A stretch of DNA of 63,993 bases, filler included, from Stramenopiles sp. TOSAG23-2 (lineage: Eukaryota), in NCBI GenBank assembly GCA_900128395.1. It is 7 parts of 7 records of this genome, joined end to end, with 100 filler letters (N's around TTAATTAATTAA, not from the genome) between each part and the next. Parts side by side here need not be neighbours in the genome. Positions count along the whole stretch, not along the records: positions 9,335 to 18,540 come from LT650116.1; 6 more parts are not named here. One strand, given 5' to 3'. The position numbers were made by a program, and so were the translations under genes. Position 1 is the first letter of the stretch, and each line of letters opens with the position of its first letter. Below the pieces are notes generated by a model. It was not told the origin of the DNA, did not search any database, and was given only the letters and a program-made list of their open reading frames with translations. Of the stretch, positions 1 to 61,425 are shown one piece after another.

Positions 1-1725
1 TTCTAATTATACAGTACATGTACAGTAGTAACTCTTTTTGCGTAAGCTGGTAAGCACGAAACACGCACTAGAGCTAGCTCTAGTTTAAGTTCTTACAGTA
101 TCATCAGCTGATACAGTAAATGAATAAAGTAGCTCTATAGATATACAGGACAGTACAGGACAGACGACAGCACGACTGTACAGTATACATACAGGTACAA
201 CAGATAAAAGAAAAATTTTACGAGGATGAGAAGATGCGCTGCAGCTGCAGATCGCAGCAGTAAGATACAAACTTATGGAAGGATCTTCCATATACATTTC
301 TGGTATTCTTATTATGAATTATTATATGAAAAATATAATATATATCATTATAAATATCATCATGAAGTATCGGATATTTGATTTTAGTTTTCAAATTTTA
401 ATCATTTTCACATTATACGTGTATATAGACAAAAACTACCAAAATTTTCGTGGAGTTGGATGGATATTTAGCATGGATTTACTATTATTTAAGGTAAAAT
501 ATAAAGAGTAAAGTTTTTTGGATATTATTAGAATTATGAGAAAATAAATAATATGCACCATATAACGATACAGAATGGGCATATTTTTGAGAATAAAATA
601 GATCTTCTTGTTTATAAAATAAATACAGCGTATAACACATATATATCCTGATATATTGATCAAGCAAATACAAAGCACAATCCTTATATGTGTATATATA
701 TATTTATATACAATAAATATATATAAATATATATAAATATCCATTGATAGTTTCACAAAGATTTAATAATGGATCAAGATATGTTGTTAAAAAAAAAAAA
801 TACGAAACGTATTGTTTTACAAAACAAATCTTTAAGAATACGACTGAAGAAATACCATGGTGGTAGGAGTGAGTGAAATCTAATAATATTGTGAGAGATG
901 AAAAAAGAACAAAACAAAAGAAAAAAGTTATATCTAGTCTATATATATATACTTACTATTTATATAGAAATAAAATCAATACAAAAGAGAGATAAAAAGT
1001 GAAAAATTAAAAAAAGGATAAAAATGTACCTGTAAAAGTTGGTAAAATAAATGCAATTTTTACAGCATTTATTTTATTTTGTATTGTACTATGTATAAAA
1101 TTTCCTATTAAATATTAATTGCTTCGGCACCACACAATACACAATGTATTAACATCATATTATGACTATTACGAGATCTGGGAGATCTAGCATTAGGGCA
1201 TAGATATAGGTACTGTACATTCAGGCTTCTCCCTGGTACATTGATAGTTGATTTCTAGAAGGTTCGGTATGAGATAGAGAGAGTGGGATAGGTAATATTG
1301 AAATTAGACTATAAAAATATGTACTGTACTATTTGAAGAGTGCATCCTGACGACAAGCACGACACACATATGCTACTGATATCGTTAAATCTTTGTTTGC
1401 ATTAATATTGAAATAACATTACAGATCATGTAAGTTTCACCTCGCAGAGAGGCCAGTATTATTCCATCGAGGCAGCATTGCCAGAAGATTGCCAGATTGC
1501 CTGGCCTTAGCTGGATGATGCCTGGATTAGCTATACCAGATTACCATTATATTCCTGCATTTTATTCAAATATTACTTTTTAATAATTACTAATAAATCT
1601 ATGTGGAGATGTATGATATATATGTAAACTAAAACGAATTGGAATATAATACAAATCAAACAAAATAAGAAACATATTAAACATACTAGTCAAACAAATA
1701 AAGTAAAAAAAAGTTAATAAATAAA

Positions 1726-2755
1726 ATGGATCCACGCGAAGAACACGTATACATGGCAAAGCTTGCTGAACAAGCTGAGCGTTACGACGAAATGGTTGAA
1801 CATGTAAGTAAAACATATGTACATAATATATATATATACACACACTTACTATATGTTGTTTTAGTTGACTGATATATATATTGTTATTACGTTTCTCTTC
1901 TCGTAGGCAACAACGATTCCAATTTAAAATATATATATATATATATAGGATGATTGGATATAATATAATAGATATAAAGATATATATATGTCACCAAACA
2001 ACTATAAATTTCTTGATGTCATGAGTCATAACTAACAATATATTTTACACCCTTTACTATACTATAATATGATACAGATGAAAGCAGTTGCTGAGGCAGG
2101 CAAAGACCTTTCCGTTGAAGAACGTAACTTATTATCTGTAGCATACAAAAATGTTATCGGTTGCAGACGCGCATCATGGCGTGTACTTTCTTCCATCGAA
2201 GAGAAAGAAGCAAACGGCAACAACGAAGCTTTGATTAAAGATTACAGGGAAAAAGTTGAAGCTGAACTCGAGAAAATCTGTAGTGATATCTTGACCGTCA
2301 TTGATGAATACCTTGTACCAAATGCTGGTACACCAGAAGGACGTGTATTTTACTTTAAAATGAAAGGTGACTACTTACGTTATTTGGCTGAGTTCCAAGT
2401 TTTGGACAAAAAGAAAGATAGTGCTGCAAAAGCATTAGATGCATACCAAAATGCACAAGATGCGGCTGGTAATAGTGACAATGGCTTACCACCAACCCAT
2501 CCAATCCGTTTGGGTCTTGCACTTAACTTTTCTGTTTTCTATTATGAAATCCAGAATAACCCAGAGCAAGCATGTCAACTTGCTAAAAAGGCATTCGATG
2601 ATGCTATTGCAGAATTGGATACACTTTCAGAAGAATCATACAAAGATTCAACACTTATCATGCAATTGTTACGTGATAACTTGACTCTTTGGACATCTGA
2701 TAATGATGATGGTGGTCAAGGTGAAGGTCAAGATATGCGAATTGAAAATTTGTAA
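1726..2755 (+). CDS. 14-3-3 protein, two exons (1726-1803, 2078-2755), 251 aa
   Basis: Exon 1 reads [26 protein letters not shown], then a GTAAGT donor at 1804, an ACTAAC branch point and a CAG acceptor at 2077. Exon 2 has [36 protein letters not shown] and [19 protein letters not shown]. Confidence 0.98.
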
Positions 2756-3377
2756 AAGGTTAGCCAGGTTGGTTAGCCAAGTTAGGAAAAAAAAATAGGT
2801 TTTAAATTTTTATTAAAATATTAGAAAAATAAATATTTTATTACGCTCGTAAAGAATATTTATCAGTGGTGTGTGTATGTGTGTGCGTTTACATTACTTG
2901 ATTTTAAATTTTTACGAGTGTTATACATGGTAAAAAAAAAGTAGTGTATATATGTACACATGTACGACGTAAAATATTTTATTATATATTCATATATGTG
3001 ATATAAAAAATTCTCTTACTTAAAATTTAAAAAGATTTTATTTACTCATAAATATATATAATATGTAAACACTAAAAACGATGAATACTTATAATAATAT
3101 GTCAAAAGTAATTTCATAAAATGGAAAAGATATAACCGTATCCTCATGCAATTCCTTATATTGATTTCCGTATTTAAAAAATCCCGTTATGCTTATGCCC
3201 CGGTCCTCATCATGGAAGTTCTCAATTCTTATATGTGATATATATTAACGTACTTCGTAATATACTTCGTACTTCATACGTATCATATATCTCATTATTA
3301 ACTGGTTTGTTATATCAATATATATATTGATGCAACATTGAATTCATATTATATCTATAAGCGCACCCTCTTCAATA

Positions 3378-3543
3378 TTTTTCATCAACAGTAGGTTGAT
3401 AACACATCTATTTTTACCTCATCGGTAATTTCTGTTACAGAAATTATTGACACATCTTGTGAGATAGATGTTAATATTGGCTCAGTCACTGTATTCTTTT
3501 GAGAGTACTGAATTGTCATGAGTAGGAATAAAGAATTAAAATA
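3378..3543 (-). repeat. Dispersed repeat family, copy 1 (related copies at 18894-19048, 43004-43074, 53876-53926)
   Basis: Shared core CTCAAAAGAATA...AGCCAATATTAA...ATCTCACAA.ATGTGTCAATAA...CTGTTGATG aligned by eye across different contigs. Confidence 0.75.
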
Positions 3544-3977
3544 CCATTTTATATATAATATTATATTATTTCTACGCGTATATTTTATAAAATTTTATAA
3601 TAAATAAAAGATTGAAAATGATTTTTATTTTTTTTATTAAACACACACGGTATGATATCATATACTATTTTTAAAATTTAACAATTTGGGGTATATGTGC
3701 CCTCCTTGTTTCTGACATTTGTAACACGCGCACATATTTTTCCTTCGATAAAAATAGTAAATTTAACTAGCTACCGGGTATGCTGAATGATATGACAGAG
3801 GAAAAACTTTGACCCAACCAATCGTTCAGATTATCTCTCATTTGTTTCATTAAATATGTTGCATCAGCATATCTATCTTCATCTAATTTATCTATCCATG
3901 CAACTGCAGCATCAAATGCTTGTTTACAATGACCAGCAGCTCGTCTTTTTTCATTTTATATATGTTTCAATTTTTTT

Positions 3978-5989
3978 TTACACCGCTAAATCTCTTGTCG
4001 ATGGTTGGTTGTTGCTATTGTTGGAATTATTTCTTTTGTTCATTCCTCCTACATAAATCATTTTCTCACGCTTTGACAATTTACGATAAAAATACAAGAA
4101 ACATCGCTTTATACACGATATGATTAAAAATAATTTCGAAAATGCAAGGAGTGATATTACAATGAAATCAATTAATTTATTGCATTTAAATATACAAAAA
4201 ATATAGATCAATAATGTTAATAGTAAGGCCAAGGTGAAGAATAAATGTTCCAATATAGTTAGCTCCTCTCCAGAACGTATAATTTCATATTTTAACTTTG
4301 TTTTATCTGCCGCTTGACTATTTTGATAATATTCAATATTATCATCATTTAATAATGGACGAGCATTGACATGTGGTTTATCTAATACAAAATTCTGTAA
4401 TTTGGAATATTCATTTAATAAAAAATACCAATAGCATATTTCTGCATCAGGTGATAAATATTCTGATGCAAATGTAGAACTATCTATTGCCAGTTTTCGT
4501 ACAATTCCATCGTTTCTTCTAGCCCATAAAACTTTTTCGCGAAGATTTGACAAATTTTTAGCGACTGGAATATAATGTACATCTTCCTTTAAAAATTCTA
4601 TTGTAAAATCAGTGAAATCATTATCTACTCTGAAAACCGCCATGTCTAAATTTATAATTTCTTTCATACGTGAACTCCAACTAAATCCTTCTATATCAAG
4701 CATATATTTATATTCATTTTGTTGTATTGCATATGGAAGAATCAATAAATTTGGATTTTTTTTACCTATAGGATCACTAATATTACAAGGTATTTTCCTT
4801 TCTGGCCATAAAATCATCATAGGCGATGAAAATGCATAGTTTATTAGATCAGTGTTTGCGCCACTAAATACGCATGCATAAGACCGAGGATTAAAATCTT
4901 TACTATATGGTTGTTTATCTTCAATGGCTTTCCAAGAAAAAAAATTACCTGTCGGGGCGCCTCTCCAAACCAATTTGCCTTTTCGATTTCCCCATTTTTG
5001 TGGAATACCAAGTCCAAGTCCGTGTCCATGTTGAAGGGCTGCACCATCTGCGGAATACGGTACTGCAATGCCACCTTTACATGTATCACATTTTTGAATA
5101 CTATATGAAAAGACAGGAATATCTAAATCAGTACCTTTAGTTGAAATATCCTGTGTATTAAGTAGAAAATCAACGTTTGGTATAATATTTTCATTATTCA
5201 CATTATGATTATTGCTTCGCATATCATTATTATTAAATATATTAACAACTTGCCATAGTTGTGCAAGTGTATATTTTTCTCGTAGGCCTAGATCTGGAGT
5301 ACAACACGTTGAGCTATACTTTGGAGAATATGGACAACACGATGCCGGAATACCATAAACAATTCCATCAATTATTTGTATTCTTATTTGAATGCCACCC
5401 GCTAAACTAGATTTTCCTGCTACCTTTTTATATGCATTTTCCATATCATCGCTTGATATACTACCACGATCATGGCTATTTAAAATTTTTACATTAGTTT
5501 CATCATCATCATCATTATTATTATTATTATTATTTTGACGCTCCTTCTTCAATCTCTCAAAATTTTTACATTAGTTTCATCATCATCATTATTATTATTA
5601 TTATTATTTTGACGCTCCTTCTTCCAAGGTTTTAACATTTCACGTATCTTTTTTAACTGCAACTCTTTTGTTGCTTTACATTTAATTGCAGGATTGAAAT
5701 TTAAACTCATTCCTTCCTGTAGTGGATCAGACGGCATCCATGCATTGATTCGCTTTGGTGCTAATAAATCAATTGGATATAATTTTTTAAATACACACGA
5801 TCTTACGTTTTTGATTGATAAAAGATGATATTTTTTATCTATTTCTGTACAACCAGAACTTCCTACTCCAATATAAAGCGCAAGTGGCAATATGGAGAAA
5901 AAAATAGAAAATAAAATTATATATATAACAAATTTAATTTTTTGATTTATCATTGGTAATATTGTAGTATCATGTGTTTTCATGTTCAT
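3978..5989 (-). pseudogene. Glycosyltransferase family 90 (CAP10/KDELC/POGLUT-like) membrane protein, interrupted by an out-of-frame tandem duplication
   Basis: ORF 5549-5989 holds the N-terminal TM anchor. ORF 3978-5552 holds IPNVDFLLNTQD, KLVWRGAPTG, YKYMLDIEGFSWSSRMK, HYIPV and YWYFLLNEYSKL plus C-terminal TM segments. Both ORFs share the duplicated KKERQN7D3-4ETNVKIL segment. This could be an assembly artefact. Confidence 0.75.
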
Positions 5990-6654
5990 TTAAACTATAT
6001 ATACAATTATTATTATTATTGCATCAATTACATCTATGTATATATATATAGATAGATAGATATCGCACTCTACTCAGGACCCCAGAGATTTTCCTTGCCA
6101 GTACCCTGAAAAGGAAAACAAACGCGTATCTTTTCTTGTTTCCATTTATTACATGTGTTGCTTTACATATTATATATAATAATAATAATTTAAATGAATT
6201 AAAAAAAAATTAATAATAATAAAGCGATTAAGGAATTAGTGCAATATGATACATTAATGTAATTGTATTAGCTTACGAGTATATAAGGACACAGCATTAC
6301 AGGAGCTAGAAAAGACTGCCCCCTTAAAAAGGTCAAATATTATATACCTTAACCTGGTATTATATTAATACGTACTGATTGATGTGTATCATCAGAGAGA
6401 TGATGATATAGACGTTATTAATTACTCTGATGTACACATCTCCTTTGCATAAATATATAGATGTTAATAACAAAATATATACTGTAATGTACAAGCATTG
6501 TATCATCACGAATCGACTATCCTATAGACGACTGTAGAAATTTACAATATACTGTCCACTATATATCCTTTTTGCATTGGATCATCACGAATCAAGCCTG
6601 TAGAAATTTACATATCTAAATATATATGTACGTGTACTTACTATAAAGAGAAAG

Positions 6655-7545
6655 ATGGATTCGTATCAAGGAAAATCGTTGATATCTAATATTAAAAACC
6701 AAATGAATATGGAAGCAAATGAAAAACGTAAAGTGACATTTAATCCAGGAGATTTAGTGAAAATTTTACCGACATCCATTCGTCCAGAACATGGTTGGTT
6801 GGCACGAAAAGGTGAAATTGGAACAGTAAATAAAACTATCATGTTAGATAAAAAGAAAATGGTTTATGTAGAGTTTCCACGTTACATGGTACATATGACA
6901 TATGATAACTATGTACATTTAGAAGATGTTAATCGTGAAGAATTATTAGTTCAAGCTAATTTAGCAAATGTTACAAAGCGCCATATGGATTGCTTAGGCT
7001 ACGTTGAATCATTATGTGTTCCACAAGGGCCAGATTTTACATTAGAGGAAAGAAGAATTTATGCCATTGCATATAAAAATGTATTTAATGGTTATAGAAA
7101 AAGTTTGAAAAAACTATTGTCCAAAGCAGAATTGTCATTAGCAGATAGAAATTCAAATATAAATAAAAAGAAAACATATGCAAATTTTGTCTTTAATAAA
7201 GTGGAAGAGTTTAGTGATATGGTTGAAGAAGCTATTTTTTTAATTGAAAAAGTATGTTTGCCTAATTGCCATCGGACACATAATAGCGAAAATATTGTAT
7301 TTTTTTACAAATGCAAAGGTGATTTTTTGCGTTATTTACTGCATTTTAAAACTGGAGAACCAAAAAATAAATTAATACGTAGAAGTGGCCAAGCTTATGT
7401 TTATGGTTATAGGCTTGCTCAACGTGGGGAGGAAAATTTATGTGAAGGTTTGATCCCGAGTCATCCTATAAGATTAGGGTTATCATTAAATTACAGTGTA
7501 TATCTATATCAAGTAATATATATGATTTGTATCTTTAAATTATAA
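6655..7545 (+). CDS. Divergent 14-3-3-like protein with a ~90-aa N-terminal extension; C-terminal helices missing or on an unresolved exon
   Basis: FTLEERRIYAIAYKNV, FFYKCKGDFLRYL and PSHPIRLGLSLNYSVYLYQ align with 14-3-3 helices 3, 5 and 7. Confidence 0.8.
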   Translation: MDSYQGKSLISNIKNQMNMEANEKRKVTFNPGDLVKILPTSIRPEHGWLARKGEIGTVNKTIMLDKKKMVYVEFPRYMVHMTYDNYVHLEDVNREELLVQANLANVTKRHMDCLGYVESLCVPQGPDFTLEERRIYAIAYKNVFNGYRKSLKKLLSKAELSLADRNSNINKKKTYANFVFNKVEEFSDMVEEAIFLIEKVCLPNCHRTHNSENIVFFYKCKGDFLRYLLHFKTGEPKNKLIRRSGQAYVYGYRLAQRGEENLCEGLIPSHPIRLGLSLNYSVYLYQVIYMICIFKL

Positions 7546-8047
7546 ATAAGAGAAATTTTTATATGATTTGTACACGAAGCTTCTCGGAATGTATTAAAAT
7601 ACGACACAGGAATTTTTTGGGGAGCGTTGAACATGTAGGTGTAGGTGTAAATGTAGTGTGCGCGTGTTAGTGTGTGTGTGTATATTTTTTAAATATTGGA
7701 TTAACATAAATCGAAGAGTAATATCAAAATATAATACATGTACAAAAGTTAGTAAAATTATGATATACTCCTCTCGTAAAAATATTCGGTACGAAATATT
7801 AGAATATATGACGATAGTTTTTTATTTGCCCTTTTAAATATATTTATAAAAAAAATACATTTTGACAACATTAAAATATGTTCTATTTTTTCTTTATGCC
7901 ATACATATACACTCTTCGTTGTCTCTCGCTTTCTCCCCTCTTTTTTGACAATGTATTTTAATTTGTATTTATAGCTATATATATATGTGTGTCTGTGTGT
8001 GTCCTTCTTCTTTTTCTTGTGTCTTACATTTCAAAAAACTAAATTAT

Positions 8048-8785
8048 TTATGCTAAAGAATCCAACAAGGATTTTCTCATCTTGTCGGACATTTCTGTAT
8101 TTTGTTGTTTTTGTAATTTTAAAATCGATTCAATCACAGATATTTCTGTAGATGTGGTATCCAAACCACAAAATGCACTCCAATCATTTGCTACTAAACC
8201 TGCTCCAACTACATCACTACCACGATTTACCGTACCTGCAACAAGTGGAATTTGTAATAATGAACTCAATTCTTCCATATCTTCCACGGAAGTTTTTGGA
8301 TGTACAATACCACCTTGATTAGTAAAACGTGAATAACTTCCAACTAGTGCATTTCCAGCAATAGTTTGCCTAAAAGCTTCTACTCCTAATACATCACATA
8401 CTATATCTTCTGTTTCCCGATCGATATCAGCATGTATTAATGCCACGTGATCATTAGTAGCGATACAATTTCCAAGTGCTGATAAACGCTCATCGATACG
8501 TTGTACTTTAATCTTATCTGGTAAAGCATTGCGAATATGCTGTAACTCTTGATCTGTTGCTGTACTAGGTAACAATAGACCATTTTTATTTCCAACAACA
8601 ACTCTTCCAACAAATCTACAATCTGCTATTGATGTATGAACGACTGGTATGTGATCTGATAATTCACTTTCAAAAACAGAATAAAAATTCTCACTTCCAC
8701 CTTGACATACCAAGCAATAACTATTTGTTAAACATGCAAATACACCAATTTCATTAGAGTTCTCAAACTGTACACGCGTAGCCAT
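8048..8785 (-). CDS. EIF6: Eukaryotic translation initiation factor 6
   Basis: 245 aa. [41 protein letters not shown] and [12 protein letters not shown] are typical eIF6 motifs. Confidence 0.98.
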
Positions 8786-9234
8786 TTTTGTCTTGTTTTA
8801 TATAATATTCTTCTCTCTTTTTTTTTTAAATCTCTCTCTTTCTTTTATTAATTTTAAACTCTCTCTACTATATATAAATATGTATATGTATATATAATAT
8901 AACTCTATTTCTAATTAATATCTATCACTGTATATATATGTTCTGTATATGTAAATATAATCTATATTCCCTGTGTTTACTTTCTTCTTTTATGTTTCCA
9001 TCATATATAACTTTATATCTATGATATATTTGATAAATCATTATACTGGTATATGTTTCATATCTGTGTGTGCTAATATTCGTGCATGCTTCTTCTTCGA
9101 CATCGACCTTTTTTTTTTCTGGTCATCTCCATCTTCTCTCTCTCTTCTCTCTCTCTGTGTGTGCGTACAATTTTTTTTTATTGTATCTGCCCTGACATAT
9201 GTTCAATTAAACACAAACTTGTCTGTATTTTACC

Positions 9235-9334: not shown

Positions 9335-10676
9335 TTACGTTCTCTATCGTATCAGATGGTTCAACATCTAACGTGATAGTTTTACCAGTTAAAGTCTATA
9401 TATATGAATATTTGTTAGTTAGTTATAGCTATTATATAAAGTTTTGTTATTATAGTGGTGAAAGAATCATGTATCAATTTACTTACTTTGACGAAGATTT
9501 GCATGATTGTTTTGTTTTTTGTTTCTTGTTTTGTTGTTTCTTTTGTTTTGTTTTGTTGTTCTGTATCGTTTTCTTTTTGTTGTTTTGTTTTCTTTTCTTT
9601 TGTTGTTATATTTTTCTCTATGTCTGTTCTATCTATCTATCTACATGTATGTGTGTTATTACTATCTATGTATTTGTAAAGTGTTGGTTTATTTGAAAAC
9701 ATGCACCATATTTTGATATCCGAAATCAATGCTATTCCCATGTTAAATCTTCATTCGATTCACGCCGCCAAAAACTACTAAGATTGTTCCATCATACTTT
9801 AACTTCTTTTATTTGTTGATCCTTTCTCTTGTCATTTTTTAGATTAAGATGATAGATGGATTCGAGAGTGCGTTGTAATGCTATGTTCATGCTATTTGAT
9901 GAATATAGCAAGGGTCAAGAGTCAAGAGACGATTTTAAATAGGTAGGTATAAATCTGCTGTATATAGTAGTTTTATACATACAGTTCATATTACAGTACG
10001 CGCGTAGTATAGTAGTCGTCTAAAATGGATTTTTTTAGTTTTTGTTTTGATGGATAGTTTGTGATACAGAGATATACTCGATTCCCTTCGTTCTTCCCTG
10101 CTACAGCCCATACCTTAAAATATGAGAGATTAAGATGCATTTAAGTGCATACTATGTACTAAAAGTAACACACAAGTACAATATTATCCTATCAAAGAAA
10201 ATTTAGAAAGGAAATAGCACAGAGGTGCCACAAAGAAATTTCATTACTTAAATTCGTGTTATTACTGACGACAGTATTAGTGCTATCCAGCTACTGTATG
10301 TACTCTGTTACTCTGGGTACTCGTGCTACAGTAATACTATTTTGATTATTAAGGTTATTATAAAATCACATTTTTGGAAAAACGGAAAACCCGAAAGAAG
10401 AAGTGCAATTTTCAATCAATTCAATTCAAAAATATATACATTTACTATTACATTCGAATTTACAGAAACACAATAGAAGGAAGAATGGCATAGACTATCC
10501 ACAACATCAAATTAAAAGAATAATATTAAAACATATACATTACTGTGATAATCAATATCGTTTGCCAGATTTTATACAAAGCTATATAATAAATCTTACA
10601 AATATACAGTATAATCAAGATACTATATATACAAAAATAAACACACACACAAATTATATAAATATACATACCAAGA

Positions 10677-11786
10677 ATGTCATCCATACTAACTGAAAAT
10701 ATAAAGAAAACACCACCATTAATTTCTGAAATAACGAAAAATAATGATACCGAAGAAGAAGAAGATGGAAATAAAATAGTTATTGAAGATGTAACGAATC
10801 TACAACAGCAACAGCAACAAAGCAGTAGTAAACCATTATCAGCTGATACTATTAGTAAGGAATTGCAAAATTTAGATTTCAATACTGAAAATACTGAAGA
10901 ACAAGGACGTTATGAATTTACATATGTACCTTCTCAGTTCAGTTTAAAAAAAGATACAGAAGGGAAAACGCTATTGAAAAAATGGGGATTTGAATTCGAT
11001 ATGGTATACGAAGAGTTTCGTTTTGATGAATCGTTTAAACCGGAGAAATTGGATCATTTTCTATTAGATTTTTTCAATTCAAGAAGTGTCCAAGGTACCG
11101 TTAAAGTTAGTAGCAAACGTAGTGGCTTAGTCAATATGATGGGAAAAGCAACTAAAGTGGAAAGTGAAATGTTAAAAACAAATGTTTTAAATATGTCATT
11201 TTTTGACAAATTAAAGGAAGAAAACATCATTGGTGAAAATGGTTATATTCGTGGATGCATGCCAGAACGATACAGTGGTTGTGAAGGTGGTAGTTTATTA
11301 CGTGAAATGTTCATTAATGAAGATTCAGAAAGTTATTTAGCATATGATGATGATGAAAAAGAAGAATTATTATTTCATATCATGTAAGTATTTATACATC
11401 ATATATCTCTATATATTCTTATACACGGATGCAATAATACAACAAACAGAAAAACAACTAACAATATATATATATGTTCATACAATTACTAATTTCAAAA
11501 CAATAGGCATCGTATATGTATAGGTGGAAGCATGTGTCAACCAGAGGATAATGCAAAAATATATTTAAGTACCGCCAAACAACTTTATAAAGAATTTGTT
11601 GCTGTACGTAAAAATAAAAATACCAATGCTTTATATGTAGCTAGTGTACCAATCGCAATCAATAATATTACTGGTATAAATTTATTTCCAGATGCAGATT
11701 CACCACATAACTTTTGTTATTTAATTGTTGATCCACAACGTCGTGCTGTGAAATATTGGTCTGCAGCTTTCGTTGATTTTTGGTGA
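10677..11786 (+). CDS. CFAP300: Cilia- and flagella-associated protein 300 (C11orf70/DNAAF17, dynein arm assembly factor); exons 10677-11383 and 11507-11786
   Basis: Motifs LKKWG, FLLDFFNS, MSFFDKL and KEELLFHIM|HRICIGGSMCQPED...YLSTAKQLYKEFVAVRK...NFCYLIVDP. The intron GTAAGT(11384)...ACTAAT...TAG(11506) restores the frame. Confidence 0.9.
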
Positions 11787-12735
11787 AAAAAAACAAATAT
11801 TTGCACTGTGTGTGTGTAATGGTTAAATGGTGTGTGATGATAAAATATGATGGTTGAAGAAAAGTAATTTTACAAAAGCGTATGACGTCAGGGAGTGTAT
11901 TATACGACTCGTACGAGAGTAGCTTCTTACTACTTCGTACGTACCTTATGTAAAAGTGGCGTTCGTAAAATATATACGAAGCTCGTAATTTTTATAAAAT
12001 GATTACGTTTAAAATATTATTGTGTTAAAAAGAATTTTTTTAATGCACGCACTAAAACATATGCTATATTGCAATAGATATATCTGCCGTCTGTGCGTCT
12101 CTCACTTACAAGGATACATCTCTTTGATTATGTCTCTGTGTTCATTCCAAAACACGTACATGTATCACATGAACACGCACCAACTCTATATAATATATTT
12201 TAAATTAAAACAACAATACGAAAACATTCGAAGAGGGTCATATATATATTTATTATACATGTTTATAATTACGGGAGTACAGTAATATTTACTCCTCGTA
12301 CAAAAACGAATTTTGTGATATGAGAGAGAAAAAGTGTAAAAAAATATATTGAACAAATAATAATTTTCACTAAGAATTCTATTTGTCATCCATTATATAC
12401 TAATAACTACCTCTTCCCTATTAAAAAAACTTATCAGGTTAATAATAACGGCACATCAACAAATGACGAACGAAAAAATTTTGAATGAAAAAATGAATAA
12501 TTTTTCATAATTTCAATTTCAATATAATTCGACGACTATAAGTTGCATAGCACTATAATCAAAACTAATAATAATGTGCTATAATAATTCATAATATGTA
12601 TATCAAAATCATTCACACTGTGTGATGGATAGATACAATAGATAGATGCATTATATATCCCCCTGATCAACAAATTATCATATACAACCATATATACAAC
12701 CATATATATATATACATATATATAAACAAAAGATC

Positions 12736-15201: not shown

Positions 15202-15561
15202 AACCGTGTAAATATTAGATCACGCGGCGGGGATTGTAAAATTATATATATCTCAACATTACGAAGAGTGTAACACACTAAAAATCACACTTTAAGATTT
15301 TAAGCTTCGCACAAAAATATGCACACAAATAAAATATACATACGAACCGTACGAATTTTTTTTTACTTAAAATACACTCTCAATTACTTCGTAAAATAAT
15401 ACGAACGTATAAAATTACACTCTCAAGAGGAAACAAATATTTTTTGTTTTAATATTAAAAAATTAAAAAATTAAATATATCTCCCCCTCTAGTCCCCTAG
15501 AATTCCTACCTAATACCTATCATACTTCGTAGATCCTACCTAGATGGATACCTACTATAGA

Positions 15562-18640: not shown

Positions 18641-18893
18641 CGAGGAGGGTAGTAGCGTATTTTTAAATTATCACAAAAGGTTTGTGAATTTAAAAGAAAG
18701 CACATCGCTTTTAAATATCATACACATAGATTACTTCGGAAAAATTCCTCACACAAATTATAATGATATGCATACATTTTATTTTTATTATACGATTCGT
18801 ATTTAAATTAAAAATAAATTTTTTTAATAAAATAAAACACGCGTATTTTAATGACTAGTACGACCTTTTTGCTGTACTGTACCAGAGAGTTCG

Positions 18894-23121: not shown

Positions 23122-23678
23122 GTGAGTGTAACGCCGACTGTATTGCACTTGATAAATAAGATACTTTTATATATAAATTAATACGTATGTCTTACGTAAG
23201 TATGATACGTAGTTTAAGATAGATTGGCGACACTATTTTTGTCTCCAATATGTAGATGATATAATATATGATATACAATACAAAATGAATACGTTCGTAA
23301 ATTTCTTGTTGATTATGGGTATATTATTGAGATGTGTCTATATATATCGATGTGTATTATTATCCTAGATGACATGTGCTCTTCCATCACAAAAACAAGT
23401 GTAAGTATATATATTATATATATATATATACAGGTGTATTGTAATATTTAGAAGATGATAGTATAGTTTAATATGACATTACATATTATTTTTATTATGA
23501 TATAATAATAATATATAGCTCTCACACACACATACACAGGTATAGTTTTAGTAAAAATAAAAAGATAATATATACATATCATGAAAATATTCTCATTTCT
23601 CTCTCTCTCTCTTTCTTCGTCTTTTTTACTTCTCTTATATATCTACTACATATACATATATCTATATACATACATTTT

Positions 23679-24140: not shown

Positions 24141-24600
24141 TATTGTTGCTCGTGTGTATTTGTATGTATATATATATATATCTTACTATATAGTTCTGAG
24201 GTTACAATATGAAGTCACTATTCTACATGTATCGTTATATCTATTATTATATTTATATTATAAATAGTAGAATATTAAAATAATGAACTAAGATCATCAA
24301 TAATATTCTTCCATCTCGTCGTCTCCTCTCTCATGTCAAAGGCATATTGGTACTGTATTAATTACTGTACAATGCTATGTAGTGTATATTGTACAGTATC
24401 TTCCGGGACGGGAGTGCTGGAGTGTGGAGCCAGGAGTGCCTGGAGTGCTCACACGTGCTTATGCTCACCATTTAGAATTGGTTCATCTACGTAATGAATT
24501 ATAATGATGCCAGAACACCTAACAGAATTCCTATAATATGGGCTTAGGCTGTAGCAGGCGAAGATGAGAGGATCGAGTACAGTATTATAACAGCTTACTA

Positions 24601-24911
24601 TAGTCGATCAGGGGAAGATCGAGAATCAAACCCCTTTCCGATATTTTACAAAAAAAATAAGTGCAATATTAGTATACTGTAATTTTAACTACTTGATAGG
24701 AAATCGACAAAAAAATGTAAAAAATGGAACAAATATTGTACTTTTTTGGTTCGAAATTTTATTCTATCAAATTTGTTGCATTTTTTACATTTTTTTGTCG
24801 ATTTTCTATCAAGTAGTTAAAATTACAGTATAGTAATATTGTACTTAGGTTTTTTTTTTTTTTTGTAAAATCGGAGGGGGGTTTGATTCCAGATCTTCCT
24901 CTGATCGACTG
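24601..24911. mobile_element. MITE / foldback element with ~135-bp imperfect terminal inverted repeats and TA flanks (Tc1/mariner-pogo-like)
   Basis: Left arm TAGTCGATCAGGGGAAGATC...GGAACAAAT (24601-24734) pairs with right arm ATTTGTTGC...GATCTTCCTCTGATCGACTG (24771-24911). TA at 24599-24600 and 24912-24913. Confidence 0.85.
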
Positions 24912-25194
24912 TAGGTCCTATACATTATAATTAATTCAATTAAAAACATGTAGACTTTTACTTTTCATTACTCTTTGCTGGTTTGGCATATATTGTTAAA
25001 TGTAAACTGGTACAAAGTTGTACAAAGTATTTATATTGTAAACATTATTATTATTATTATTTCAATTTTATTTAGCGAGATTGGTTTTTATTACTCTAAT
25101 TATTATAACAAACAGCAATTATTTTTTATTAAGTTACACTAGCGATGCACTAGTAATATAATCATTTTCACTTTTTTTACAATATTGAATAACA

Positions 25195-27633: not shown

Positions 27634-27844
27634 AAAGAAAGAGATAAGAAATTACGCTTCGTAGCATGTACTAAAATAATGATTTAATACGAGTCGTACC
27701 AAATATTTATTCAATCTCATGCATATATAAATTATTTATATGAAACAAATAAAAATACGAGTATAATTTTAATACGAGTAATAACTCAAATCTTTGCCGC
27801 CATCATACTTTTCTTCATTAAAAATTGAATTTTTCTTTCTTTAT

Positions 27845-35011: not shown

Positions 35012-35369
35012 TATAACAAAATAAAAAAAAAGAATGTCAACGGGGGTGGTGAAGCTTACTGTGTAATAAAAATACGAGGTAGACAAAGATTAAAAGAATA
35101 TGATAATAAAAACTAGGTACGAAGTCGTATACACGAAAAGTCGTATGATACACAAGTATTTTTTTTATAAAATAAATAATATAAAAATATGTATTAAATT
35201 ATATATCATATACACTATGTTTATTTTTATAAATAAAAAATACCAGAAATAAAAAAACAAAATTTATTTTTTATTAATATATAAATAACATATGATACTC
35301 GTATATACGAGTCGTATATTATAATAATTGTTAATATGCACACCAGCACACACACACACAAATAAACAA

Positions 35370-39406: not shown

Positions 39407-39454
39407 ATATAAATTGGAACTATAACATATTTTGTAGAAGATAGAGTACGAGTT

Positions 39455-40149
39455 TAGCTGAGTTTATAATTAGTAACTACGAAGTATAAAGTAAACTATT
39501 GTTATCCAATATATATCGTCTCTCCTCATAACTCTATGGAGTCCCTACGGTAGCTAGTTTTGAAAATATTCAAATCCATATTAGCCTAATTCCATTTTGA
39601 AGTATCAGTTGGGTAATTCTGGATCAAATATCAAAAGAATAATGGTGTATTTATTTAATTATTACGTAAAACGCGTGGATTTTTCCCTTAAATACTTCTC
39701 TCCGCCTTAACTTTATATTCGGCACATTTAGAACTACTTACCAGCTTATAATACCAGCTTAACTGCCTTACCAGCTTACAGTAACATAAAATTGTGGTTA
39801 GTATTTGCCAGCTGCTGGCTAGCCAGCTAGGTTTGCCTGCCTGGCAGATCCTAAATTTGCCTGTATTATGCCACATCAATGCTGGAGTGCTGCTACCAAA
39901 AAAAGAAAAAAATCATGATCAGGGCTGCCATCATCAAACCAGCAAAAGTAGAGCGGATCCTCTCAATACTCAAAAGCCACTACACACAGCATGGAGATAA
40001 TAGAGTATAATAGTACGCTGCGACATACTGTATATAATATTTTGAACGATATAATTGTACGAGATGCACTTTGCGTACAACAAGACAAGCAACAATTTTA
40101 GTATTAATAAGTAAAGTTAATCTACACTCTTATTTTTTCACCTAAGCAA
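39455..40149 (+). repeat. ~0.7-kb direct repeat, copy 1 (intergenic/promoter module upstream of GMD)
   Basis: Highly similar to 42877-43615 in two blocks, ending in both copies at TTTTTTCACCTAAGCAA. Confidence 0.9.
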
Positions 40150-42734: not shown

Positions 42735-42876
42735 ATATATATATATAATTTACGCATATAATTTATTGTTTTTATTTAAACAATAATTTGGAGCAGATCT
42801 GAATAACTTTTTACAATAGATAATCGAATATATTTTCATAATTAACATCTAATTATACATATATATTATTAATTAA

Positions 42877-43615
42877 TAGCTGAGTTTATAAATATTGGTA
42901 GTATAACTAATAAAGTAAACTATTTTTATCCAATACATATCGTCTCTCCTCATAACTCTATGGAGTCCCTACGTTAGTTATGCGTAAATTAAATTAAATA
43001 ATATTAATATTGGCTCAGTCATTGTATTCTTTTGAGAGTAGGAATTGTCATGGGTAGTAATAAAAAATTAAAATATGTGTACATTTATTTACCCATGACA
43101 ATTCCTACTCTCAAAAGAATATTTATTTAATTATTACATAAAACGCGTGGAGGATTTTTCCCTTAAATACTTCTCTCCGCCTTAACTTTATATTTGGCAC
43201 ATTTAGAACTACTTACCAGCTTATAATACCAGCTTACCTGCCTTACCAGCTTACAGTAGTAACATAAAATTGTGGTTAGTATTTGCCAGCCTAGCTAGGA
43301 TCCTCCTAGTGTCAAAAGAGAAATTTGCCTGTATTATGCCACATCAGTGCTGGAGTGCTGCTACCAAAAAAGAAAAAAATCATGTTTAGGGCAGCCATCA
43401 GCCATCATCAAAAGTAGAGCGGATCCTCTCAATACTCAAAAGCCACTACACACAGCATGGAGATAATAGAGTATAATAGTACGCTGCGACATACTATATA
43501 TAACATTTTGAACGATATAATTGTGCGAGATGCGCTTTGCGTACAACAAGACAAGCAACAATTTTAGTATTAATAAATAAAGTTAATCTACACTCTTATT
43601 TTTTCACCTAAGCAA
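42877..43615 (+). repeat. ~0.7-kb direct repeat, copy 2 (no downstream gene; internal 32-bp perfect hairpin)
   Basis: Matches 39455-40149. The internal segment is replaced by a dispersed-repeat copy with IR arms at 43025-43056 and 43090-43121. Confidence 0.9.
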
Positions 43616-43911
43616 TACTAATTTAACTAACTATAGATTAAAAAATGAACTACAGCTACTGCCAAATTGCTGTTGTTCCTGTTCAAATGTTATTTATATT
43701 AAGTACATATTTGTATATACTAAGAACACTATTTGATCAAAAATCGATGCAGAATTAGTGCTGGAGCCTGCTGTGGTTTTTCACAGCCCGCCGCAAAGCT
43801 GCGTTGCTATTTGTAACAGTCGATCAGATCTGGATCAAGAATCACCCCCCCCCCTGTGTATAATATATTATCCTAAATACTACAAAGCGCGTGTAGTGGT
43901 ATTATATATTC

Positions 43912-44814
43912 TTACAATGCTTTTTCTACTGCGTATATTTTCTGACTCATGTACTTTGTAAGATTATCTTGAAAAGTTATAACAGTTTCTATATTTACCA
44001 AATTATGCTTCAGTAGCGGGTGCACCTTTTGTATAAAGATCTTTAGGCTATATGACATTGCTCTAGGAATGATGTCAACCACTTTCTTGGATGACCTATC
44101 TTTTGTGATAATCCATTCAAAAACAGCAAGAGCTTGTGTATAAGATTGCTTGCAAAATTCAACATCAATTTCCTGGCAGATTTCAGCTATACCATTATTT
44201 CCTACAAGATGTTTTGCGTGTATTGATACAATCTTTGAATTTAAATAAAGAAGTGGGTTGTACGTGCTTGCAGAAGCAGTTAAGGAAAAAGTAATGCTGG
44301 TATCATCAGCAAAGAAGTAAGGTACCCACTCTTCTACAAAACCAGCTCTTCTGTATGCTGCGATAGCAGCTGTGTTGTTCCTAGCCACGCCGAGTACAAT
44401 CTGATTAACATTTCTGTATAAATATAGCCCAGTGCTCATATACTGTATAACTTCTCGAAAAACCCCTTTCTTACGCCATTTAACCTCACCTATTAGCACC
44501 CCCACCACAGTATAACCTAGACAAACGTTGACTGGATCAAACTTTATATTACCAATATGTAATTCATTATAGAATATTTCAAAGAATAAGACATCCTTTT
44601 TCGCACAATTTGTTTTTACGAATTCCTTAATTTGATCCTTGTTTGTCGTAGTTTTCGCTGATTGAATAAATTCTAACACTAGCGGATCTTTCATCCACCC
44701 CAAATATGTATCGCTTACATCATCTACCGTTAGAGTGCGAAGAAAGAATCTGTCTGTTTTCAGTCGTATTTCGTCCCTCTGTTTTTGTACATCTTTCGCT
44801 ATTATTTTATCCAT
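43912..44814 (-). CDS. GNAT N-acetyltransferase (RimJ/RimL type, bacterial-like) with an unknown C-terminal extension
   Basis: LKTDRFFLRTLTVDDVSDTYLGWMKDP, HIGNIK, GVLIGEVKWRKKG, LGVARNNTAAIAAYRRAGF. First ATG at 44814. Confidence 0.85.
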   Translation of the reverse strand: MDKIIAKDVQKQRDEIRLKTDRFFLRTLTVDDVSDTYLGWMKDPLVLEFIQSAKTTTNKDQIKEFVKTNCAKKDVLFFEIFYNELHIGNIKFDPVNVCLGYTVVGVLIGEVKWRKKGVFREVIQYMSTGLYLYRNVNQIVLGVARNNTAAIAAYRRAGFVEEWVPYFFADDTSITFSLTASASTYNPLLYLNSKIVSIHAKHLVGNNGIAEICQEIDVEFCKQSYTQALAVFEWIITKDRSSKKVVDIIPRAMSYSLKIFIQKVHPLLKHNLVNIETVITFQDNLTKYMSQKIYAVEKAL

Positions 44815-44991: not shown

Positions 44992-45501
44992 ATAACTAAT
45001 ATTGTACTTAATATAAAATCAGTTGTAGAATTTGGCGCTAGTTTGGGGTGCTACTCTCATTACTTTGTGGAGAAAGGTATCAATGTAAACGCGTACGAAG
45101 GGGCGAAAAATATTAACGAGATAACAGATGGTTTTGTAAAACACTTGGATTTAACCGAAGCAAGCGATGGTGTTGAAATATCTGATTTTGTAGTATGTCT
45201 TGAAGTTGGCGAGCACGTTCCAAAACAATTTGAGGACAATATGTTTAAAATAATCAACAATAGCAATAAAAAAGGGGTTATTTTGAGTTGGGCATGGTCG
45301 ACAAGGGGGGAGGGTCATGTCAATGTTCATGATAACAAGTATATTAAAAATAAAATGCGCTCGTACGGCTACGTAAATGATATGGCTGGTGAAAAAATGT
45401 TGCGAGATAGCGCAACGTTATCTTGGTTTAAAAAAACATTGATGGTATTTAAAAAGGCGGAGAATGTAATGGGCACAACAGATGCAAGCCAAATTGATTA
45501 A
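44992..45501 (+). pseudogene. Class I SAM-dependent methyltransferase fragment with no ATG start (5'-truncated or unresolved upstream exon)
   Basis: The frame opens after TAG at 44989 and reads KSVVEFGASLGCY (motif I), VVCLEVGEHVP, GVILSWA and GEGHVN. Confidence 0.65.
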
Positions 45502-57662: not shown

Positions 57663-60479
57663 ATGGATCCGAGGAATGCAAACAAACAGCTTGATGAGTC
57701 TATCAAAGATAATCGCAAAGAATTAGCGAAAGGAAATCACGAACAGCTTGATACTCGTATCGAAAATTACGAGTTTCTCGAAAGACTCGGGAAAGGGGGT
57801 CAGGGAACAGTGAATCTTTGCAAAAGAAAAACAGATGGTGAAAGATATGCTATTAAGCACTTCTCAATTGATAAACAGCAGTTCTCAATTGATAAACAGC
57901 GAGCAGTAAAAGAAGCGGAGCTTTTGATGTTACCACCTGAGCATGATAATATTGTGCGTTGTTTTGGTAGCTGGAGGCAAGACGATACGTTCTACATGCT
58001 AGAAGAACATTTAAAAGGGATGGATTTACTTGAATATCATCAAACACACGGACAAAGTATATCACAAACAGAGTTATTGTCAATTATAATTGGTAGTTTA
58101 AGTGGCGTTGCGCATTTACATGATTATAATATATGGCATAGAGACTTAAAACTCGAGAACCTATTTCGTACTGATTCTGGTACGATCAAGTTGTTTGATT
58201 TAGGTTTAGGATTACATGCAAGTGGTGAATTTACAAAGTCATTAGTAGGTACACCAATTTATGCATCGCCAGAACTAGTAAATTTAATGTACAACAAAGA
58301 TTCTTCCGGATATTCCAGTAAACATGATATGTTTCAACTTGCAGTAATATATTTTATTCTTGTTGCTGGTTATCACCCTTTTGTACCCAAAACAGGCAAT
58401 GTCAAATTGAGAAATACAAAAACATTTGAAAATATTCGCGGTAAAGAAATTCGCCTTCGACAAAACAAAACCATACCGTACGATCAACGAATCCTGAATT
58501 TGATTAAGAAATGTGGGGCAAAAGATCCAAAAGCACGCCCAACTGCTAAGGAAGCTTTAGGTATGGCAATTGATATTTCCAAAGAAATTGAAACTGAAGG
58601 ACGGATTGAAGGTGCAAAGCAGGTGAGCGTTCTTGTAGAAAATTATTTTTTGAGCTGTTTGAAGGACAAATTTATCGGTTGGGTAAAAAGTTTGAAAAAA
58701 GATATCAAGTTTGAAACCATGAAACGCGAAAAAAAGGTGAACGAGACGCGAAAAAAGGTGAACGAGAAGCTTGTAAGAGAAGAATTGAAGAAGAAAAAAC
58801 TAGCATTAGAGGGTTTACGTCAGCAAGTCATGGAAGATCAGAGAAACCTACAAGAACAGCGGGATCAATTGAGGAAAAGAGAAAAACAACTACAGGAAAA
58901 GGAAGAGAAAGTTAAAAGAGACGATTTAAAATTGAAAAAAACACTTTGGAATGCAAAATGGAATGCTAATAATATTATCCATGTTACTAATATCCAAACA
59001 TTCATTCGAAAAGTACTTGCTACAAGGCGATACAGAAAAGATCTACATGATATCATTGTTATACAAAGATTTATTCGTAAGAAATTGGTCCAACAAAAAT
59101 GGTATGCAAATCAAATTCCAAAAATTGAAAATCGATATGCTGAACATTATGCAAATTCGGTAAGACATGCCTTCGATTCTAAAGTTGCAAAAGAAAGTAA
59201 TATTATTTTGCAAAATCGTAATAATGAACTTGCGTTGGAAAAAGTGCAAACGGAGAATCACAACCATGCACTTTTATTAAATATGGAACAACTACAGGAA
59301 GAGTATGCTACACTTGTACGTAACGTTGAAGGTATCCACAAGGATTTAATTTGTCCCATCACGTTAGAACGTTTCGTTGATCCTGTTATTGCACGTGATG
59401 GATATGTCTATGAAAGTGAAGCAATTCAACAATGGTTTGATAATCACAGGATTTCACCTATGACCAATGGCCCATTAACGGATACAAGATTAACACCATG
59501 TCACAAGATGAAGACGATAGCTCGAGCTTTTGATGATGTTGCAGGAAATAATAATAATGTGCAAGAATTGGATACTCAGTTGAAAGTAGTCCGTGAAAAT
59601 TATCAACGACGTTTCGAACAAAGCGTTAAGAAAAATGAAGATCTTCAAGACAGATTAAATGATTCTAAAAAAATTATTTGTGAACAAACCTTGGAATTAG
59701 CAAGTGAAAAGATAACAATTCAGGAACAAAACGTGGAATTGGCGAGGGAAAAGAAAACAATTGATACACTTCGCTTTGCTGCGAAGCAAAGGGATCGTGA
59801 AATCGAACGCCTAAAAAAAGAGACAAGAGGTAGGCAAACCATTATTAATCAAAATCGTCTTGAAATTGAACGCCTGACTAGTACACTCGGTAATCGTGAA
59901 CTTGATATCAAAAAAAAAGACGACCAAATTAAATCACTTTATCAAAATGTTGGTGCAATGTTATGTAAAAAGGATAGAACATTTGGTCCAATCACACGCA
60001 AAAAAAGTATTGTAAGGAAAAAGATTGGAGATAGTCAATATGCAGGCCAAATGGAAAGTGGTAAACGCCATGGATTTGGTGCAAATACATATGCTAATGG
60101 CAATACTTATGTTGGTGAATGGAAAGATGATAAGAAAGATGGAAACGGTGCATATACATATGCTAATGGCAATGTATATGTTGGTGAATGGAAAGATGAT
60201 AAGAGAAATGGAAAAGGTAAATTGACAGATAAAAATGGAAAATTAATCCATGAAGGGACGTGGAAGACATATGCTAGTGGTAATGTATATGTTGGTGACT
60301 TTAAAGATGATAAATTCCATGGAAAAGGTACATTTACATGGAATAGTGGATCGCTTAAAGGTGAGGTATATGTTGGTGAATGGAAAAATAATAAACAAAA
60401 TGGATATGGTAAACACACTAATGCAGATGGTTCTATCTATCATGATGGAATGTGGAAAGATTGTGAACGAGTGCGATGA
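57663..60479 (+). CDS. Ser/Thr kinase - coiled coil - 2x IQ - U-box - coiled coil - MORN repeats
   Basis: Kinase GKGGQGTV, AIK, HRDLKLEN, DLG, GTPIYASPE. IQ motifs IQTFIRKVLATRRY and IQRFIRKKL. U-box LICPITLERFVDPV..DGYVYE..AIQQW..SPMT. MORN repeats YVGEWKDDKKDGNG. Confidence 0.92.
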   Translation: MDPRNANKQLDESIKDNRKELAKGNHEQLDTRIENYEFLERLGKGGQGTVNLCKRKTDGERYAIKHFSIDKQQFSIDKQRAVKEAELLMLPPEHDNIVRCFGSWRQDDTFYMLEEHLKGMDLLEYHQTHGQSISQTELLSIIIGSLSGVAHLHDYNIWHRDLKLENLFRTDSGTIKLFDLGLGLHASGEFTKSLVGTPIYASPELVNLMYNKDSSGYSSKHDMFQLAVIYFILVAGYHPFVPKTGNVKLRNTKTFENIRGKEIRLRQNKTIPYDQRILNLIKKCGAKDPKARPTAKEALGMAIDISKEIETEGRIEGAKQVSVLVENYFLSCLKDKFIGWVKSLKKDIKFETMKREKKVNETRKKVNEKLVREELKKKKLALEGLRQQVMEDQRNLQEQRDQLRKREKQLQEKEEKVKRDDLKLKKTLWNAKWNANNIIHVTNIQTFIRKVLATRRYRKDLHDIIVIQRFIRKKLVQQKWYANQIPKIENRYAEHYANSVRHAFDSKVAKESNIILQNRNNELALEKVQTENHNHALLLNMEQLQEEYATLVRNVEGIHKDLICPITLERFVDPVIARDGYVYESEAIQQWFDNHRISPMTNGPLTDTRLTPCHKMKTIARAFDDVAGNNNNVQELDTQLKVVRENYQRRFEQSVKKNEDLQDRLNDSKKIICEQTLELASEKITIQEQNVELAREKKTIDTLRFAAKQRDREIERLKKETRGRQTIINQNRLEIERLTSTLGNRELDIKKKDDQIKSLYQNVGAMLCKKDRTFGPITRKKSIVRKKIGDSQYAGQMESGKRHGFGANTYANGNTYVGEWKDDKKDGNGAYTYANGNVYVGEWKDDKRNGKGKLTDKNGKLIHEGTWKTYASGNVYVGDFKDDKFHGKGTFTWNSGSLKGEVYVGEWKNNKQNGYGKHTNADGSIYHDGMWKDCERVR

Positions 60480-60789
60480 ATGAAAGAGAATCCCTTAAAA
60501 ACATATTAAATAATAATAATATATATTTATACTTATTACTATACATAAACATAGGAACACACATTTCACACACCACATTTTGGACTCTCTATATTTATTA
60601 TTTAGCTATAATGCATTTTGTTATTTTGTTATAATACAACATTGAATACATTTTTTGAACCACATTGAAATACCAAACCAGATCGACTTTTCACAAACAT
60701 ATCATTTTTGATTTCACCATTCACCATTATCCATTTGTAATAGAGAAAACACTTCGTTTGTCAGTGTGCGGTAATATTTTTGAAAAGGT

Positions 60790-61133
60790 GATGATAAGAG
60801 AAATGGAAAAGGTAAATTGACAGATAAAAATGGAAGATTAATCCATGAAGGGACGTGGAAGACATATGCTAATGGTAATGTATATGTTGTGGTGAATGGA
60901 AAAATCATGAGAGACATGGAAAAGGTACATTTACATATGCTAGTGGTGATGTATATGATGATGAATGGAAAGATGGTAACAGACATGGAAAAGGTACATA
61001 TACATAGGCTAGTGGTGCTGTACATGTTGGTGAATTCAAAGATGATATCAGACATGGAAAAGGCAAAGAGACTCTCGCAAATGGTTCGATCATTCACAAA
61101 GGAATGTGGAAACATGATAAACCAGTTCGATGA
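60790..61133 (+). pseudogene. Degenerate duplicate of the MORN-repeat C-terminus
   Basis: 60790-60889 nearly equals 60195-60294. Different MORN units follow, with one frameshift (GTTGTGGTGAA) and an in-frame TAG, ending at GMWKHDKPVR*. Confidence 0.8.
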
Positions 61134-61425
61134 ATACATATATTATATGTAGACTGACAAGGAAAAAAACACAAATTGTCTTTCAACTCGATTGACCATG
61201 AAGCAAGAAGTACAAAAAAAAGAAACAAAATTTTGATACTCGTATTATTACCAAGAAAAAAGAAAAAAGAAGGAAGAAAAAAAGTAAAAAACAAAAAAAC
61301 AAAACAGGAAAAAAAAACGGAGTGCTGGGAGTGAATATTAAACGAAAAGTATATGATATTAAATATTACACTGTATATTACGTGTGTGTGTAATTTAAAA
61401 GTACACATCATTGATATAAGTCTTT

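Follow-up and report, generated by a model that had tools for sequence, protein, structure and literature searches.

The 3′ flank of the CFAP300 gene raises two questions: why do short TACG/CGTA palindromes gather behind its stop codon, and what could read them there? The gene lies at 10677–11786 on the plus strand (coding exons 10677 to about 11384 and about 11510 to 11786, covering PF14926 positions 1–157 and 160–244), and 11 TACG or CGTA words fall within 11879–12007 in its 3′ flank. An inward-facing dyad, TACG-ACT-CGTA, occupies 11903–11913, 117 bp past the stop codon, with its right half overlapping a TACGAG half-site at 11912. Further on, a TAC-TTC-GTA dyad merges into an overlapped TACGTA (11931–11943), and a TTCGTA half-site precedes a second inward dyad, TACG-AAGCT-CGTA (11962–11987 together; the dyad itself at 11975–11987, 189 bp past the stop). 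The stretch 11787–12100, which holds this focal cluster, is single-copy in the genome. A preliminary description had taken TACG-N(1–5)-CGTA palindromes to be a candidate code for gene 3′ ends, and had offered three mechanisms: a site for a dimeric DNA-binding protein, a small RNA hairpin and a target for CpG modification.

The window, by which we mean the whole stretch of 63,993 nucleotides that was analysed, consists of seven contigs of ∼9 kb each with N-spacers between them. Its first contig is G000:C2281 of the assembly behind our genome-wide counts, which is incomplete and comprises 32.8 Mb in 9146 contigs. The 18S gene of the assembly (L081) includes the exact MAST 4 probe listed in PMC4234645, and we treat the source organism as a MAST-4-type stramenopile on the basis of this one probe match. 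For eIF6 from the first contig, the best named stramenopile relatives are Tribonema, Peronospora and Pylaiella (78–79%). Twenty-four sequencing runs contain part of window positions 1700–9200, and 16 of these are recorded as RNA. For the positional analysis, 80 further stretches minus eight of 703 bp left 72 contigs, which together with the window's seven give 79 contigs and 725,750 bp. Coding segments were called with our own ORF and 5-mer model, which misses some genes, and gene 'ends' are stop codons, not transcript ends. The dyad expectation in the window comes from 100 dinucleotide shuffles, and genome-wide pair and word counts were made by pattern search.

Dyads in the window

The window contains 15 TACG-N(1–5)-CGTA dyads, against a mean of 1.72 in the shuffled sequences (n = 100; maximum 6), and 12 of them stand 20–385 bp beyond a stop codon, taking ORF ends as gene ends. 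All 13 sites of the preliminary description were recovered with matching coordinates; no strand is assigned to any of the sites given here. Behind the 14-3-3 gene, which stops at 2755, TACG-CT-CGTA (2842–2851) and TACG-A-CGTA (2963–2971) follow at 87 and 208 bp. The convergent gap between the U-box/Sel1 and kinesin genes (15202–15561) holds two dyads, at 15341–15351 and 15400–15409, together with half-sites, and the gap between the convergent sulfatase and TPR genes (35012–35369) holds two more, at 35118–35129 and 35306–35316. The fucokinase/fucose pyrophosphorylase gene is followed by two dyads within 27653–27698, at 20 and 55 bp from its stop, and then by TACGAGTA at 27756 and 27773. At 18791–18801, TACG-ATT-CGTA is 385 bp past the stop of a minus-strand ORF ending at 19186. 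TACG-TT-CGTA at 23290–23299 is ambiguous, lying 380 bp past the ISCU stop and also about 170 bp before the start of the next gene.

The remaining three of the 15 dyads lie elsewhere. That at 801–811 has no identified gene end nearby, as had been noted. Two that were absent from the preliminary description are TACG-CG-CGTA at 9997–10006, which is in intergenic DNA, precedes the CFAP300 start by about 680 bp and also has no identified gene end nearby, and a dyad at 45364 within an ORF. No N(1–5) dyad stands at a 3′ end in the last three contigs of the window. A zero-spacer dyad, TACGCGTA at 3573–3580, is another newly found site: the C-terminal piece of a 14-3-3-like gene has its stop at 3767 on the minus strand, and the dyad follows it at 187 bp. 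Outward-facing CTCGTA and TACGAA half-sites occupy 7771–7797 in the eIF6 3′ gap.

The 14-3-3-like gene itself is divided between two places. Its plus-strand part at 6655–7500 covers Pfam positions 2–170, its C-terminus (Pfam positions 177–222) is found at 3770–3955 on the minus strand, and the window is apparently inverted over about 3960–7510. In the conspecific metagenome contigs L082 and L083, unlike in the window, the eIF6 3′ gap is joined to the 3′ end of a glycosyltransferase gene. The apparent inversion is probably an assembly or amplification chimera. Short duplicated stretches, possibly assembly artefacts, interrupt the start of the glycosyltransferase ORF (5487–5610) and the end of the kinase/U-box/MORN ORF (60300–61150).

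Position and strand relative to genes

Across the 79 contigs, dyads with spacers of 0–6 bp number 57 in 37,651 bp of convergent gaps (88 gaps; 1.51/kb), 13 in 37,758 bp of tandem gaps (53 gaps; 0.34/kb) and eight in 60,160 bp of divergent gaps (71 gaps; 0.13/kb). Short same-strand gaps, which are mostly introns, contain one in 7,285 bp (44 gaps; 0.14/kb), and coding segments contain 29 in 509,438 bp (0.06/kb). Dyad density is 11-fold higher in convergent than in divergent gaps, and both the 3′-end association and the scarcity in divergent gaps, first claimed from the window, hold on 726 kb. The half-site, TACGAR/YTCGTA, occurs at 5.2/kb in convergent, 1.6/kb in tandem, 1.1/kb in divergent and 0.3/kb in short same-strand gaps, and at 0.9/kb in coding segments. 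Such a half-site is present in 67 of the 88 convergent gaps, and in 33 of the 71 divergent gaps, which are longer.

To call the dyad a code, as was done at the outset, captures its positional enrichment but overstates its reach. Of the 88 convergent gaps, 36 hold at least one dyad, as do 8 of the 71 divergent ones, and coding DNA carries it at a chance number, the 29 copies found comparing with about 27 predicted from half-site density in a hand estimate. Because coding DNA shows no depletion, one core dyad alone cannot be a strong terminator and is tolerated within genes.

Behind the 79 non-convergent stop codons there are 0.9–2.4 dyads per kb in the first 200 bp, compared with 0.0–0.2 upstream of starts, and density reaches its maximum 50–100 bp past the stop. 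This result bears on the possibility that the dyad is a DNA-binding site with some other job at gene ends, such as a replication origin, a cohesin or condensin anchor or a downstream enhancer. All of the sequence evidence for a DNA dyad would apply equally to such a site, and yeast general regulatory factors act in both transcription and replication (PMC5052057). However, because density follows the stop codon even at non-convergent genes, a role at transcription ends fits better, and we consider these other jobs very improbable.

The half-sites have no strand bias, with 46 copies of TACGA and 47 of TCGTA in non-convergent 3′ flanks, and the orientation independence proposed from the window is thus upheld. 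The test is able to detect a bias, since GAGAGA just past stop codons is clearly strand-biased (69 versus 7). As a separate observation, the first 120 bp after stops (164 flanks) show a strong sense bias for the purine-rich words GAGAGA/GAAGA and for GTGTG; these words are candidates for an RNA-level 3′ UTR signal distinct from the dyad.

Half-site geometry and candidate readers

The unit of the element is a TACGA(A/G) half-site in which the outer TAC is most constant. Between 59 kb of 3′ regions and 60 kb of divergent gaps, the counts are about 182 versus 40 for TACGAA/TTCGTA and 85 versus 23 for TACGAG/CTCGTA, and TACGTA is also a top CG context. At a distance of about 7 bp from the T, base composition no longer departs from background. 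A general CpG enrichment at 3′ ends was rejected, since CG in contexts other than TACG/CGTA is no denser in 3′ gaps (12.1/kb) than in 5′ gaps (12.7/kb). The intergenic DNA had been described as CpG-poor; this is mostly a matter of low GC, the CpG odds for the window being 0.89.

The CpG at the core of the motif suggests that 5mC or another base modification could label gene ends and be read by a chromatin or termination factor. The assembly has seven C5-methyltransferase matches on six contigs. One of them, an 887-codon ORF (L164:865–3528, G000:C749, minus strand), carries a C5 cytosine methyltransferase domain as its sole Pfam hit. Among four C5 matches inspected by eye, two resemble DNMT2 tRNA enzymes, and a compact enzyme encoded in L161 resembles those of bacteria or viruses. 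C5-methyltransferase genes are present, and nothing ties them to the motif. Against a modification signal, the enrichment is limited to the TACG context, methylated CpG is expected to decay rather than accumulate, and variable spacing is atypical for a methylase site. We give this explanation a slim chance.

The half-sites are paired in a preferred orientation. In the 3′ regions, inward pairs at spacers of 0, 1, 2, 3, 4, 5 and 6 bp number 11, 8, 12, 20, 15, 11 and 7 (84 in all, with one site entered twice in the list), against about 2.6 per spacer at 10–40 bp. Other pairings at 0–6 bp amount to 21 outward and 26 and 27 direct. Overlapped forms are frequent as well, TACGTA being the commonest class (58) and CGTACG occurring 34 times. 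The spacer of 1–5 bp first assigned to the element falls within the real range, which is wider and extends from overlap (TACGTA) to about 7 bp. Genome-wide, inward TACG..CGTA outnumbers outward CGTA..TACG by 6966 to 2826, whereas the reversed control words are unbiased (4916 and 5158). For 6-bp half-sites, there are 973 inward versus 150 outward pairs at separations of 0–4 bp and 257 versus 249 at 5–9 bp. In the site lists, dyad symmetry extends to central positions that would be unable to pair in a hairpin.

Of the three mechanisms offered originally, a small RNA hairpin directing cleavage and polyadenylation is the worst fit to this geometry. In the Mimivirus hairpin rule, polyadenylation is directed by a hairpin with a long stable stem and a short loop at each 3′ end; here the arms are 4–6 bp. 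As many as 31 of the 84 inward pairs have spacers of 0–2 nt, the overlapped TACGTA is more common than any of the spaced classes, and the inward excess is gone at loops of 5–9 nt. Outside the dyad, pairing does not depart from chance at any of six positions tested (80 sites). The short, variable spacers and the lack of stem extension argue against an RNA hairpin. Clustered half-sites in both orientations are foldable, and two of 10 tested 3′ stretches have z < −3, including a long stem behind the 14-3-3 gene, but the other eight fall short of z = −2, among them both that cover the focal cluster (+0.98 and −1.18). Dense half-site clusters can still form stems, and folding may contribute at some genes, but hairpins are very unlikely to be what defines the element.

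Two further structural candidates were rejected. The tetraloop consensus is cUNCGg, and for a cUACGg loop the flanking bases are rare, with C before TACG in 7% of cases and G after it in 5%. Long inverted repeats built on the motif were also discarded: among the five longest listed for each of five gaps, the arms are AT-rich and 70–83% complementary.

A dimeric DNA-binding site is the best geometric fit among the original three mechanisms. Inward dyad symmetry that includes an unpairable centre, combined with strand-neutral half-sites, is the expected trace of a dimeric protein that binds double-stranded DNA. The explanation that we tentatively prefer, with a little less than even confidence, is that the dyad is a site for such a protein and bounds transcription from both sides. 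From the geometry and position of the sites we infer protein binding, a dimeric state and an effect on termination. Recognition would be of double-stranded DNA through two inward TACGA(A/G) half-sites, overlapping or up to about 7 bp apart, with additional single half-sites clustered nearby in AT-rich DNA 50–400 bp beyond stop codons. The protein on these clusters would be encoded by the host, be either dimeric or made of two domains, and have a flexible linker; the clusters it occupies would mark the 3′ boundary of the transcription unit for a polymerase arriving from either side. The effect might be a pause or roadblock, a nucleosome-depleted boundary or both, which would aid cleavage and termination. 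Several points weigh against this reading, among them the undepleted coding DNA and the convergent gaps that carry no dyad. The 'ends' in our analysis are stop codons, so the sites may fall within 3′ UTRs, at cleavage sites or beyond them, and an unbroken series of spacers from overlap to 7 bp would be unusual for a rigid dimer.

Companion words, turnover and comparison with known systems

A second strand-symmetric word is found at 3′ ends. TATCATA/TATGATA, often in the form ATAT-S-ATAT, occurs 238 times in 3′ flanks versus 31 in 5′ flanks, with each convergent gap entering the count twice, once from either side. Genome-wide it occurs 11826 times versus 6159 for the reversed control; examples in the window are at 35099–35105 and 35290–35296. 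The 5′ side has a counterpart in TAC(A/T)GTA, at 0.90/kb in 5′ gaps versus 0.21/kb in 3′ gaps. The promoter-side words enriched in divergent gaps include TACAGTA/TACTGTA and TACATGTA (for example at window positions 11–17 and 24351–24400), and TACATA/TATGTA is enriched on the 5′ side (109 versus 195).

The companion words bear on the main rival to a DNA-bound dimer, which is a palindromic RNA element for 3′ processing: UACG/CGUA words in single-stranded RNA would be read by an RNA-binding factor and, like yeast UAUAUA, would serve both strands. In yeast, termination zones of about 120 bp are built around a palindromic word that serves as their central signal in both directions (bioRxiv 10.1101/2022.11.02.514956), and TACGTA and TATCATA/TATGATA resemble the yeast words. 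As in the yeast UAUAUA/UACAUA/UAUGUA zones described there, short palindromic TA-rich words are gathered in the convergent and tandem gaps that follow genes and could serve either strand, and the peak of dyad density at 50–100 bp past the stop would suit such an element. Downstream of stops AATAAA is not clearly biased to either strand, and a search of the incomplete assembly gave no CFIm25 hit; together these make a non-canonical 3′ signal plausible. However, a reader of single strands would not explain why tight pairs face inward 6.5 times as often as outward, unless a two-part self-reverse-complementary motif is required, and TAC(A/T)GTA, which is equally yeast-like, is enriched in 5′ gaps. 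The enriched 3′ words are TACG-cored, not the UAUAUA, UACAUA or UAUGUA by which the yeast element is recognized. The yeast efficiency element is a single hexamer read on RNA, 30–100 nt upstream of cleavage sites on each strand, unlike the CpG core, two inward halves and 0–7-bp spacing seen here. In our estimation an RNA element is unlikely, though less so than the other rivals.

Related genomes were compared at eIF6. Our sample contains 79 eIF6 loci, among which only L085 is a sister species with a full 3′ gap. Its eIF6 protein identity is 97%; L134 is at 91% and has 87 bp of the 3′ gap. A dyad with a spacer of 0–6 bp occurs anywhere in six of the 79 loci and in none of L082–L085 and L134. At L085 the convergence of eIF6 and the glycosyltransferase gene is retained, although the gap is no longer alignable, and six TACGAR half-sites are found against 2.0 expected, two in the 3′ gap (TACGAGTA twice) and four outside it. 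The check on sister genomes that had been called for thus gives, at this one locus, half-site enrichment and no full dyad, and conservation of the element is suggestive only. In the conspecific L082 and L083, a TTCGTA and a TACGAG half-site are kept in the eIF6 3′ gap despite many indels. CGAAG is present in one of the pair and absent from the other within a TA run (L082:2035–2043 versus L083), such that a TAC-GAA-GTA site is made or lost in one step; this word fits the C-GNA-G pattern of DNA mini-hairpins.

The CGAAG polymorphism points to fast turnover and keeps alive, at a low probability, a transposon origin for the element. The shape TA-short-TA is that of Tc1/mariner excision footprints, and all of the enriched words have it, TA-CGAAG-TA in one conspecific contig standing opposite TATA in the other. 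The sites could on this account be debris of a TA-targeting transposon of this type, whose footprints would read TA-(end bases)-TA, or functionless mutational by-products. Footprint words were counted by hand against a zero-order expectation (80 loci of this genome, L001–L080, 668 kb), and those predicted for a transposon end CGA(A)G are at or below chance (TACGATA 113 versus about 155; TACGAATA 53 versus about 53). Words with an imperfect half that close as TAC..GTA are instead enriched 2–4-fold (TACGAAGTA 32 versus about 8; TACGAGTA 52 versus about 25). Bases beyond position 7 are at background, the focal flank has no second copy in the genome and short same-strand gaps are not enriched. An origin in fragments of a transposon family, of which the preliminary description had itself warned, is therefore unsupported, and we regard it as highly improbable.

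A dimer bound to CpG-cored half-sites at variable spacing has parallels among known factors. GMEB, a SAND-domain factor related to DEAF1, has variably spaced CpG half-sites. DEAF1 itself binds variably spaced CpG half-sites (PMC4274154), and its sites, as presented there, share with ours two CpG-cored halves, flexible spacing and informative flanking bases. They differ in having TTCGGG half-sites, 6–11 nt between CpGs and a promoter function, in place of TACGAR, 0–7 and 3′ ends. No SAND domain was found in the incomplete assembly by a search that matched no control genome either. Yeast Reb1, Rap1 and Abf1 block Pol II without a preferred orientation (PMC5052057), and like the dyad they use sequence-specific, orientation-independent DNA sites, although ours are placed against stop codons and the yeast sites at transcript ends. 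In that account, Reb1, Rap1 and Abf1 act at tens of sites each (77, 34 and 20), for the most part in promoters, where they halt transcripts that are non-coding or read through; here, thousands of sites lie at 3′ ends, avoid divergent promoters and are unrelated in sequence. A stramenopile palindrome of the TAC..GTA type is also abundant in Phytophthora infestans, where the promoter motif M93 is TACATGTA, with 4150 promoter copies (PMC3597505). TACATGTA is itself one of the 5′-side words described above, and M93, as characterized there, is unlike the 3′ dyad in being promoter-associated and without a CpG core.

TACG does not appear in the main text of PMC3597505 or of the P. infestans binding-specificity paper PMC11267843, whose figures or supplements could contain a matching motif. 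We found no description of a TACG/CGTA element in the literature on stramenopile or MAST-4 motifs, palindromes, polyadenylation and termination, a scope that leaves out most subscription papers, figures and supplements. The element appears to work like known bidirectional end signals but does not show all of the features that define them.

Signals for transcript 3′ ends are known from a few model lineages, in which sequence-specific proteins that bind DNA work largely at promoters and serve only as a back-up for halting polymerase. If the proposal of a DNA-bound dimer is correct, a dyad that prefers 3′ ends and avoids promoters genome-wide would give this marine grazer, which is abundant and uncultured, an end signal at the level of DNA. 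A more ambitious version, which we regard as improbable, is that MAST-4 has a dedicated DNA-encoded 3′-boundary system. A flexible dimer on thousands of CpG-cored dyads, together with a second dyad, TATSATA, would then be the main determinant of Pol II transcript ends, replacing the canonical AAUAAA/UGUA RNA signal and mirrored by the CpG-free TAC..GTA word on the promoter side. In that case methylation of the CpG core could act as a switch for termination. For the annotation of MAST-4 assemblies, the dyad can already serve to flag the 3′ ends of genes.

Other repeats in the window were noted by eye. One contig carries two copies (39440–40120 and 42860–43620) of a non-coding block several hundred bases long, one upstream of a GDP-mannose dehydratase-like ORF and the other downstream of an ORF ending at 43912; part of the block resembles window positions 3480–3545. 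The divergent gap between ISCU and the fucokinase gene contains a long imperfect inverted repeat with arms at 24560–24720 and 24730–24920.
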